A stretch of 64,000 nucleotides of DNA from a virus (Duplodnaviria > Caudoviricetes), in the IMG/VR virus record IMGVR_UViG_3300025715_000009, positions 256,001-320,000 of that record. The stretch is one strand, 5' to 3'. A model generated the notes under the pieces. It did not search any database. It was not told where the DNA came from and worked only from the letters and a program-made list of their open reading frames with translations. Each line of letters starts with the position of its first letter. The stretch's first letter is position 1. Of this stretch, positions 21,137 to 61,250 are shown in pieces. Both the position numbers and the translations under genes were made by a program.

Positions 21137-21177
21137 ATAATCTCCTGCAGCTATTATATCATAATATATGCTGCTCT

Positions 21178-21208
21178 AAAAAAAGTGTGGGGGCCAAAGG
21201 CCCCCACG
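21178..21208 (-). terminator. intrinsic terminator between the AAA and VWA genes
   Basis: GTGGGGGCC-TTT-GGCCCCCAC plus T run. Confidence 0.75.
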
Positions 21209-30813: not shown

Positions 30814-30842
30814 AAAAAAAAGACGCTATTTAATAGCGTCTT
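30814..30842 (-). terminator. terminator after tmRNA
   Basis: AAGACGCTATT/AATAGCGTCTT plus T run. Confidence 0.75.
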
Positions 30843-30843
30843 A

Positions 30844-31114
30844 TGGAGCTGCAGGCAATGACGCCTGGTCCAGAATATAAACACATAATATGCAAATAGT
30901 TTTTACAAGAACTTATTAATCTTGTGCAATTTATTGTTTTTCATGACAAATCAGCTAAAAGTCATTATCTATTTATTAAAGCTGCATTCAGGAAAATAGA
31001 AAACCTATAAATGCAGGTAAAGCAGCAATTAAGCTGCGAGTGCAAAATTGTCGTTTATTTAAACAAAACTTTTATTATGTGTTTTATCTACTCTGTCGAA
31101 ATCTTTTCAGCCCC
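30844..31114 (-). ncRNA. ssrA: tmRNA (compact), tag (A)DNFALAA
   Basis: GGGGCTG/CAGCTCC-A acceptor with G3.U70; TTCGAC; P2 helix; AATAAAC-GAC...GCA GCT TAA tag at 31052-31029. Confidence 0.9.
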
Positions 31115-37259: not shown

Positions 37260-37264
37260 TAGTG

Positions 37265-37335
37265 TGCCCCATTTGGGAATCGAACCCAAGTAAATAGTTT
37301 TAGAGACTACCGCTTTACCATTAAGCAAATGGAGC
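37265..37335 (-). tRNA. tRNA-Sup (CTA), amber suppressor
   Basis: full cloverleaf; GTAGT-CT CTA AA-ACTAT. Confidence 0.85.
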
Positions 37336-42348: not shown

Positions 42349-43174
42349 GGGCTGAGACTATACCCTTCTCGCTATCACTTTCAAGCCCGTACCTTTGAGG
42401 TGCTACCCTCTCCGTTAAGCTCTTATCCACATCCTCATGGATGTCTGATAGCATGGCTGCCTTTTTTAGAGAGTGGCTTTTCTCTCGTCACAACAAGTTA
42501 ATCAACCTTCCGGTTACCGTCTACCTTGCGAGCAGTAAAGGACCGCTAAGTCCACCGTGCACCTTCCCATCAAACCCTTCCGCCTTGCGAGCTTCCAGGC
42601 TCCAGATTCTCTTTCGAGTCTGGACTTAAGCCATTTTCGCTTGTTGTCGGTCAAGACTTTTGCGTTTTCAATTGTTGGACTCGAACCAACGACCGATTGT
42701 ATTACAAGACAATTGCTCTACCATTGAGCAAAACTGAACGGGTTTCCCCTTGACCACGAGGTGCTTGACCAGTTGCTCCATATCCTTTTGAGATACGGAA
42801 TACAACACCTCGCATACATTTTACCTGCCGGCTACTTTGTGGTTTTTCAAGACCAGGTATTCCCCTGAATCTATCAAACTGCTATTAAGCACTTGTCTGC
42901 AAAGACTCGCACCTAATAACTACTGTTCTCTCTCATAGATAATCAGTTTTGCATGAAGATAATCCCTTGCGAGGAAAAGTTACTCTCACCCGGTTGGCCC
43001 TGAATAACTCTGTCTCTTCCTGATGTCTCTACAAATTCCGCTGGTAGCGAAATCATAGGAGAGTCAGCTTGCTTACATGAACTGTATTACTACAGCGGGA
43101 GGCGTCACCCTTTACCCCTTTATGATTATTGCTAATCACTATTCTTCGCCTTTCGGCAGGACCATAAGCAGCCC
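42349..43174 (-). ncRNA. GOLLD-like giant structured RNA (~826 nt)
   Basis: GC-richer region without credible ORF; 5' GGGCTG pairs with 3' CAGCCC; many GNRA hairpins; embedded tRNA; size and tRNA-cluster context fit GOLLD. Confidence 0.75.
42666..42738 (-). tRNA. tRNA embedded in GOLLD-like RNA, 8-nt anticodon loop (CU UGUA AU)
   Basis: TTCAGTT/AATTGAA acceptor; ATTGT-CTTGTAAT-ACAAT; GTTGG-TTCGAGT-CCAAC. Confidence 0.7.
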
Positions 43175-60526: not shown

Positions 60527-60577
60527 ATGTGCAACCCTAGAGTCGCTAGGCGTCTCTTTATTGGGTCGCAAGCGTCT

Positions 60578-60650
60578 TGGCTCCCATGGGATTCGAACCC
60601 ATACTGTACACATTTTAAGTGTGCCGCCTCTGCCATTGGGCTACGGAGCC
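60578..60650 (-). tRNA. tRNA-Leu (TAA), short variable loop
   Basis: cloverleaf; CTTAAAA. Confidence 0.85.
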
Positions 60651-60847
60651 ATAAAATTGGGCTCCAGACTAAGGTTGCCCTACCTAGATATATCTAATAT
60701 AGTATCAAGCAGGAGTTTCCTATACCAAGTCTGGTTGATATAGGACGCGCTCTTTAATCTTTATAGAGGGAAAGAGCACCGCTTATGCCTGCAGCTCTTC
60801 AGCATCGACCCTCTTACTCAAATAATTTCACAAATATAAAGTTCTAA

Positions 60848-60951
60848 TTAGCGAGGTGGTGTCATCCTAACCTCCATATTAATCTACAAATAACACTTAA
60901 TTAAACTTGCTAAATTCTTACTTACCAGGTGGCGTCATCCTAACCTCCATA
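60848..60951 (-). repeat. 25-bp direct repeat carrying SD + MTPP minigenes
   Basis: TATGGAGGTTAGGATGAC(G/A)CCACCT at 60927-60951 and 60854-60878. Confidence 0.75.
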
Positions 60952-61038
60952 CTAGGCTAATTAGTTAACTTTTGCCATGTTGAGTTGGCGCTCTTTATCT
61001 GATACTCTTATTCTACCATACTTATATATGCTCTAAAT

Positions 61039-61110
61039 TGCAAAATATTGGATTTGAACCAATGACTTCCACCATGTCAAGGTGGCACTCTCCCACTGAG
61101 TTAATTTTGC
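61039..61110 (-). tRNA. tRNA-Val (GAC)
   Basis: cloverleaf. Confidence 0.9.
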
Positions 61111-61175
61111 GTAGGCCATCCATCTAAATCGTCGTAATAATCTCCTTCAGGAATCATTTTGTCCTCCATAAATAG

Positions 61176-61250
61176 TCTAGGTGGAAGTACTCGAAACTTC
61201 ATTGTGTCCTGGTCCCGGGCCAGGCGGGTTGCCTCTTACCCAACACCTAG
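61176..61250 (-). tRNA. tRNA-Pro (CGG), C33
   Basis: CCTGG-CCCGGGA-CCAGG. Confidence 0.75.

Follow-up and report, generated by a model that had tools for sequence, protein, structure and literature searches.

Probably translated Pro-Pro minigenes, tandemly duplicated within a giant-phage tRNA array

Phage lambda bar is a two-codon minigene (AUG AUA stop) whose harm appears only when the host runs short of Pth. Salmonella mgtP is a proline-codon leader ORF, while the ermC leader and the cryIIIA STAB-SD are 5′ stabilisers of Gram-positive bacteria. The tRNA cluster of phage T4 also yields species 1 and 2, non-tRNA RNAs that are co-transcribed with the tRNAs and released by tRNA processing; to our knowledge, they are structured and lack an SD-led ORF. 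The tRNA arrays of giant phages are large, and their regulation is almost unknown. In artificial toxic minigenes, a short peptidyl-tRNA leaves the ribosome and the tRNA is sequestered (PMC2490762). Minigenes of three to eight codons sequester tRNA in this form (PMC2490762), and very short ORFs shed peptidyl-tRNA with the same result (PMC2490762, PMC10192219). When EF-P is limiting, ribosomes stall at PPG, holding peptidyl-tRNA-Pro in the P site while Gly-tRNA occupies the A site; the stall depends on context (PMC4140641). The RAPP/RGPP arrest peptides (ApdA, ApdP, SecM class) need Arg-Ala/Gly-Pro-Pro and, within the exit tunnel, a longer nascent chain (PMC10951233). Finally, the strong SD of hbs is a 5′ stabiliser in Gram-positive bacteria (PMC5737220). 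We found no description in the literature of SD-led Pro-Pro minigenes in the leaders of phage tRNA arrays.

Such a pair lies in the 64,000-nt window analyzed here, bases 256001-320000 of a 388-kb phage record from sludge, with 30% G+C. The minus strand of this window carries 39 tRNA genes. Between tRNA-Val(GAC) and the next tRNA of the array is a 387-nt spacer (61038-60652, minus strand) that holds both minigenes. The elements needed to follow its layout are these:

61010-61037, minus strand: internal sigma-70-like promoter found in a promoter scan, TTTAGA, 16 nt, then a TG-extended TAGAAT (TGgTAGAAT); kept in the relative L047
60887-60959, minus strand: repeat unit A, with SD GGAGGT at 60948-60943 and minigene A, ATG ACG CCA CCT GGT AAG TAA, at 60938-60918, encoding MTPPGK
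60814-60886, minus strand: repeat unit B, with SD GGAGGT at 60875-60870 and minigene B, ATG ACA CCA CCT CGC TAA, at 60865-60848, encoding MTPPR
60577-60651, minus strand: first tRNA of the unit, called Phe(AAA) by ARAGORN; its loop CUUAAAA reads as anticodon UAA

The internal promoter follows directly on tRNA-Val, and its predicted transcript start is near 61003. Promoters of the class TTTAGA-N16-TGnTAnAAT are strongly biased to the coding strand, with eight copies on the minus strand of the genome and a single one on the plus strand (for example at 61010-61037 and at 21153-21180, both minus strand). Most of the seven copies other than that of the leader have an SD and a start codon within 45 nt downstream, and a similar promoter stands right before a tRNA in contig L184 (about 1196-1225). 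Given the position of the promoter right after tRNA-Val, the strand bias of its class and its conservation in L047, the spacer is best read as a leader of about 350 nt, belonging to an internal transcription unit that would run into the tRNAs. Minigenes A and B would then lie about 55 and about 130 nt downstream of the predicted start, as short SD-led ORFs in a promoter-proximal leader. None of the tRNAs downstream (UAA-anticodon, Asn, Trp, Ile) is connected with proline; the tRNA-Pro genes are either upstream of the leader (61175-61250) or 10 kb downstream. An Rfam search of the spacer gave no match, and this includes the CsrB/RsmZ-type families. Readings of the spacer as a hammerhead, a T-box or a tRNA remnant were dropped because the motifs misfit or Rfam was negative. 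There was no similar DNA among GenBank phages.

Several features of the array were seen in passing. In the tRNA at 60577-60651, the anticodon stem GCACA/TGTGT leaves the loop CUUAAAA and hence anticodon UAA, as in its L047 ortholog, which ARAGORN labels Leu(TAA); the variable region is short (class I), unusual for a Leu tRNA. An 18-codon SD-led ORF at 61101-61157 (minus strand; GGAGGACAAA-ATG, MIPEGDYYDDLDGWPTQN) takes up the 64-nt gap from tRNA-Pro(CGG) to tRNA-Val, and its stop lies inside tRNA-Val. Its start context TATGGAGG is common to both minigenes, and the ORF is absent from the relatives fetched. At 30841-31114 (minus strand) there is a tmRNA-like match to the full Rfam model RF00023 at 41.7 bits, just below the gathering score of 47 bits. 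The array also contains a tRNA with anticodon CTA at 37264-37335 (minus strand), which reads UAG and is labeled Pyl by ARAGORN, and another, at 42666-42738 (minus strand), for which a four-base anticodon (tgta) was called. UAG suppression is irrelevant to minigenes A and B because both stop at TAA.

The preliminary description, which drew attention to this spacer, reported a 25-bp SD-led repeat with a synonymous ACG/ACA change, encoding MTPPGK and MTPPR. Indeed, the sequence is exactly as stated. A spacer of 4 nt (TAGG) separates SD and ATG in both copies, and six codons follow in minigene A and five in minigene B. Each thus consists of an SD, an AUG, five to six codons and a stop, with no longer ORF, which is the makeup of the bar-type toxic minigenes. 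The direct repeat spans 48 nt at 79% identity with a start-to-start spacing of 73, and when gaps are allowed the units align over about 85 nt. From this alignment, units A and B are a 73-nt tandem duplication whose flanks have since diverged. Divergence has been uneven. The 25-nt core, from the SD to the second Pro codon, carries the single synonymous change, the flanks are about 60% identical, and the 10 mismatches between the 48-nt copies avoid the core (permutation p = 0.028). An in-frame ATG GAG GTT AGG had also been pointed out before both copies; it is present, but it is unconserved, being TTG in another frame in L047.

Within the genome this combination is rare. A 15-mer from the core occurs twice in the 388 kb, only in these copies, and of the 12 genome-wide occurrences of ATGNNNCCNCCN only the two in the minigenes have an SD upstream. 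The arrangement GGAGGT, 3-8 nt, ATG occurs 24 times. In 20 of these it opens an ORF of 40 aa or longer, almost always on the coding strand, which makes it a dependable sign of a true start in this phage. The remaining four head mini-ORFs, and two of these are minigenes A and B. We also asked how exposed the ribosome-binding sites are: in the folding ensemble, the accessibility of the SD regions is no higher than that of the rest of the leader.

One relative allows the leader to be compared across lineages. L047 is a 2.3-kb Logan contig whose neighboring ligase is 80% identical at the amino acid level, and it is the only informative diverged relative among the ligase homologs. Contigs with an identical RNA ligase have a spacer that is 100% identical save for one SNP at 60907, between the copies and outside the core, and these near-identical contigs (L038-L045) are uninformative. 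The orthologous leader of L047 contains one unit, GGAGGT-TGCCAG-ATG AGT CCA CCT GGT TGA, encoding MSPPG. The SD, the ATG, the reading frame and CCA-CCT-GGT (Pro-Pro-Gly) are kept. The SD-ATG spacer has gone from 4 to 6 nt by a 2-nt indel, codon 2 from Thr to Ser, and the stop has changed in position and identity. The last sense codon, whose tRNA governs the effect of bar-type toxic minigenes by being trapped as peptidyl-tRNA at a slow stop, differs in every copy (AAG in A, CGC in B, GGT in L047), so the copies have no last-codon tRNA in common and Pro-Pro is the invariant part. The preliminary description had asked whether homologs would conserve the nucleotides and lose the ATG, the frame or the Pro-Pro pair; in this single relative, GGAGGT, ATG, frame and CCA-CCT-GGT all survive.

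How much this retention means depends on the background divergence. Fourfold sites of the ligase genes are 51% identical between this phage and L047 (n = 63), while the leader blocks are 78-84% identical, which argues that the leader as a whole is constrained. The minigene is no more conserved than its surroundings. All 12 translation-signal positions (GGAGG, ATG, CCN CCN) are nevertheless retained in the three copies from two lineages. The whole leader thus appears to be under constraint, with the kept and changed positions inside it following the translation signals. The CCA-CCT is the same in all three copies, with zero synonymous Pro-codon changes. Codon-level conservation across phages is only partly borne out: one diverged relative keeps ATG, frame and Pro-Pro, but its Pro codons show no synonymous change, and with a single relative of this kind, codon-level and nucleotide-level constraint are inseparable.

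These comparisons bear on a functionless origin. The minigenes could be what is left of a gene that was deleted in the common ancestor, namely its ribosome-binding site and opening codons. Slippage would later have duplicated this remnant, which would persist only through limited divergence or through a constraint on the surrounding leader that has other causes. The tRNA array is indeed highly mosaic, and close relatives differ in which ORFs and cassettes they have gained or lost. After its promoter, L047 carries an SD-led ORF of 48 aa that is missing from this phage and has no homolog among 5.8 billion proteins. Also in keeping with such an origin, there are only three copies to compare, with invariant Pro codons. 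But a fragment drifting at the pace of the fourfold sites would not be expected to keep all 12 translation-signal positions while positions adjoining the signals changed, including by the indel in the SD-ATG spacer. No longer ORF beginning M-T/S-P-P-G was present in any relative examined, and the reading frame downstream of the minigenes is full of stops in both lineages. We consider a functionless remnant unlikely. In favor of the minigenes being real, each leader has two ribosome-binding sites: those of the 48-aa ORF and one minigene in L047, and those of two minigenes in this phage.

Other relatives show how readily the array changes. The stretch L047:1006-1125 (plus strand) holds a tRNA that ARAGORN missed, with an extended variable arm and the anticodon loop CUGCUAA (Ser GCT; Rfam 29.9 bits), and after it, at the position of this phage's tRNA-Val, an orphan T-arm and acceptor stub. 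This is another sign of gene replacement in the array. A relative with a 97% identical ligase has a 230-nt insert between tRNA-Asp and tRNA-Pro (L048:1427-1658, plus strand) that belongs to no Rfam family, folds at -83.6 kcal/mol (z = -5.1) with a closing stem of about 22 bp, and has the motif GTCGAYGCTGAAGA in common with the conserved block of the leader described below. Ligase relatives at 64-69% identity have tRNA arrays in which the element is absent, and in ligase homologs at 88%, 97% and 99% either the leader is absent or the contig ends before it. Pattern scans of IMG/VR and JGI metagenomes for the core, the conserved block and the X1 hairpin found no further relatives, and a survey of SD-led mini-ORFs in the relatives' tRNA arrays revealed no recurrent class.

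Look-alikes turned up in broader searches and were set aside. An exact search for GGAGGTTAGGATGAC in viral contigs gave 24 matches, all of them unrelated, ordinary SD-plus-ATG gene starts; a 25-nt match in L162 is inside a protein gene. A degenerate SD-ATG-xPPG pattern matched viral contigs 55 times. Among these, MTPPG* (L068, L073, L076, L105) is antisense to and adjoins a wcaG RNA, and MKPPG* (L064, L107) falls within a coding region; we regard both as chance. The wcaG RNA of L068, a low-G+C IMG/VR phage contig, lies at L068:6282-6382 (minus strand; Rfam RF01761, 96.5 bits), with the adjoining MTPPG* on the opposite strand and a tRNA-Pro(TGG) about 640 nt away. In metagenomes the same idea gave 34 matches and no phage relative, only a soil-bacterial M[IT]PPGQxAA family. 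Its members (L121-L151, JGI soil metagenome, about 60% G+C) have SD-led short ORFs M-[I/T]-P-P-G-Q/H-x-A-A in about 27 of the 34 contigs, with 9 or 20 codons and synonymous variation. The 20-codon family is preceded by a TTGACA-type promoter and followed by a terminator-like hairpin with a U-tract. These ORFs gave no Rfam match and have no clear downstream gene within about 1 kb; they are possibly an undescribed bacterial family of PPG leader peptides.

We then considered RNA structure. The features of the leader that bear on it are the following:

60844-60964, minus strand: inverted repeat CTAATTAGC/GCTAATTAG (9 nt, 60844-60852 and 60956-60964, extendable to about 14 bp), flanking both minigenes
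60987-60996, minus strand: X1 (AAAGAGCGCC), 5′ strand of a long-range helix, from duplex energies and RNAalifold
60974-60989, minus strand: small hairpin GCCA-8 nt-TGGC, kept in the L047 alignment
60766-60813, minus strand: conserved non-coding block of 48 nt from the L047 comparison, GAGGG...AGCTGCAGGCATAAG...Y (GGTGCTCTTT, 60780-60771)...CCCTC
60747-60755, minus strand: X2 (AAAGAGCGC), a direct repeat of X1 and second possible partner of Y
60718-60745, minus strand: hairpin whose position is kept in L047 but whose sequence is not; L047 has TTCCAGAAAAT...ATTTTCTGGAA there

The inverted repeat had been taken to enclose the minigene pair in a hairpin. It is present in the sequence, but it has no counterpart in L047, so the hairpin is specific to this phage, and its stability is unremarkable: the minigene region folds with z = -1.1, and 26 of 200 shuffles fold as well. 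The long-range pairing is better conserved. X1:Y is a 10-bp helix (60996-60987 with 60780-60771). Its energy is -16.4 kcal/mol in this phage and -14.8 in L047; a single compensatory change, C-G to U-A, separates the two, and RNAalifold selects this helix. The region of the conserved block is 84% identical to L047 over 64 nt, against the 51% for four-fold sites of the neighboring gene. Coding does not explain the block: by eye, its three substitutions follow no convincing codon pattern, and a minus-strand ATG is ACG in L047. The minus strand of the genome contains [TC]GCTCTTT 16 times, and other array leaders do not feature it, so a boxA-like reading of Y (UGCUCUUU) was set aside as a weak lead.

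With Y able to pair with either X1 or X2, the leader could act as a sensor in cis. Ribosome dwell on the minigenes, governed by EF-P or Pro-tRNA supply, would choose between X1:Y and Y:X2 plus GAGGG:CCCTC, tuning read-through, processing or stability of the tRNA precursor in a leader-peptide type of control over tRNA output. The element lies between promoter and tRNA genes in both lineages, and X1, Y and X2 change together in L047, where the minigene stop is 8 nt before GAGGG and the stop of the 48-aa ORF overlaps X1. Here, though, the distance from stop to block is 32 and 105 nt, so it is unconserved, and in both lineages the transcribed strand lacks an intrinsic terminator (hairpin plus U-tract) between minigene and tRNA. 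The tRNAs that would be controlled are unrelated to proline, the folds are no stabler than shuffles, and a sensor ORF would not usually be duplicated in tandem. Judged by the attenuators trpL, hisL and mgtP, the leader has an SD-led promoter-proximal ORF, but the terminator/anti-terminator overlap is absent, the ORF is clear of the switching strands of X1:Y and Y:X2, and the regulatory codons are unmatched to the downstream genes. A cis-acting sensor is thus rather unlikely.

The nucleotides themselves, GGAGGUU...GAUGA...CCACCU, could instead form a protein-binding or RNA-pairing site that has nothing to do with translation, for example a CsrA-type GGA site, an SD-only 5′ stabiliser holding the 30S, or an SD/anti-SD hairpin. 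CCA-CCT is, after all, nucleotide-invariant in all copies, and CCACCU is partly complementary to GGAGGU. The AGGAUG of copy B falls in a predicted loop, and strong SDs at the 5′ end are able to stabilise Gram-positive mRNAs by blocking RNase J1 (PMC5737220). The local hairpin is, however, only 4-5 bp with a 12- to 14-nt loop and no better than shuffles, and Rfam has no match. Despite the indel, the ATG has stayed at a working distance from the SD, 4 nt in this phage and 6 nt in L047; neither an SD-only site nor CsrA would need that. Titration of CsrA by the GGA motifs had been offered as an alternative and loses most of its basis, since UAGGAUG is CCAGAUG in L047 and the second GGA is gone there. 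Set beside the known CsrA/RsmA sponges, with their many GGA motifs, mostly placed in hairpin loops and kept among homologs, this leader has two to four, counting four in the two units, and its hairpins are unstable. We regard a translation-independent site as very unlikely.

The best explanation as a whole is that the repeats are real, selectively maintained, ribosome-engaging minigenes, a reading we hold tentatively and at somewhat less than an even chance. The broader claim that the element is functional and depends on translation stands slightly above even. We infer the remaining steps: where the transcript begins, that ribosomes translate the minigenes and pause there, that the leader is set free, and whatever it does to the phage or its host. 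They would fit together as follows. The internal promoter would drive transcription through the leader and on into the tRNA genes, and RNase P, as in general tRNA processing, would cut at the 5′ end of the first tRNA and free the leader. Ribosomes would load at the GGAGGU sites, synthesise Met-Thr-Pro-Pro and pause in a Pro-Pro-Gly or Pro-Pro-Arg context with a four-residue peptidyl-tRNA-Pro in the P site; copy B is PPR, not PPG. The RNA would then act through the held ribosome or the shed short peptidyl-tRNA, with no peptide product. A stable, released leader that acts in trans would accord with the missing terminator, the variable distance between ORF and structure, the duplication and the presence of two ribosome-binding sites in each leader. 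Should the element be functional and translation dependent, it is still doubtful that the released leader acts as an RNA that engages ribosomes or tRNA-Pro.

A decoy or sensor role had been proposed from the start. The ribosome-engaging part of that proposal holds up in L047, which keeps SD, ATG, frame and Pro-Pro, but a pure decoy is mildly disfavored. Pro-Pro is not depleted in the phage proteome (111 observed, 113 expected, in 73 of 393 proteins), which is a mild argument against a pure decoy for EF-P or tRNA-Pro. We found no Pth1, EF-P or RF-1 domain in the phage genome; with normal Pro-Pro content and no EF-P gene found, a decoy would hurt the phage too. The phage does encode a PTH2-family peptidyl-tRNA hydrolase, an intact 129-aa ORF (111 bits) outside the window (G000:C1:67842-68222, minus strand; L185:1495-1884). 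It is conceivable, and distinctly unlikely, that minigenes prone to stalling and drop-off are deliberately coupled to this PTH2 and to the tRNA array, as a gauge of Pro-Pro capacity or as a weapon directed at the host. As a gauge, the cell's capacity for Pro-Pro translation (EF-P, Pro-tRNA) would set tRNA output; as a weapon, the leader would tie up tRNA-Pro and ribosomes of the host, with the phage recycling its own. In both cases this would be a class of translation-manipulating RNA in giant phages new to the literature.

Taken together, the data suggest that these are probably real, translated minigenes. If so, a conserved ribosome-binding Pro-Pro minigene would be a new route by which a phage reads or disturbs the translation state of its host, whether through EF-P dependence, peptidyl-tRNA drop-off or ribosome capture. 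With just two ATGs and two Pro-Pro pairs to mutate, the element is small and inexpensive to test. Were it only a remnant, it would still document the speed at which ORFs are gained, lost and duplicated in phage tRNA arrays.

Among described systems, the species 1 and 2 RNAs of T4 have no sequence similarity to the leader, in line with the negative Rfam search. The Gram-positive 5′ stabilisers hold a ribosome on the RNA through a very strong SD near the 5′ end and shield the RNA downstream from 5′-end-dependent decay. The leader has strong SDs, and that of L047 has another SD at about +5 of the predicted transcript. Stabilisers protect a downstream coding sequence, and here the downstream sequence is tRNAs, which are excised anyway. 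RAPP/RGPP arrest peptides are likewise short regulatory ORFs in which Pro-Pro blocks peptide-bond formation; their motif is missing here, where Met-Thr or Met-Ser precedes the Pro-Pro (MTPPGK, MTPPR, MSPPG). In working, the minigenes appear most like lambda bar and the artificial minigenes, and the proline-codon leader ORFs. With EF-P-dependent PPX motifs and mgtP they share consecutive Pro codons in a very short leader ORF, and in that likeness the dwell time on the leader ORF could report EF-P or Pro-tRNA status; PPG is found in two of the three copies. In cases of the mgtP type, the genes downstream encode proteins and the ORF is linked to defined alternative stem-loops, whereas here tRNAs are downstream, no terminator or RBS-masking helix lies over the ORF, and the pause would come at codon 4-5 of 5-6. 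With lambda bar and the artificial minigenes they share an SD, an AUG, a few codons and a stop with no protein product, and also a place on a phage transcript and a putative action through short peptidyl-tRNA that is recycled by peptidyl-tRNA hydrolase. Unlike bar, they run to five or six codons, of which the Pro-Pro pair is invariant and the last one varies; their place is a tRNA-array leader, they are kept in a diverged relative, and the phage itself carries a PTH2 gene.
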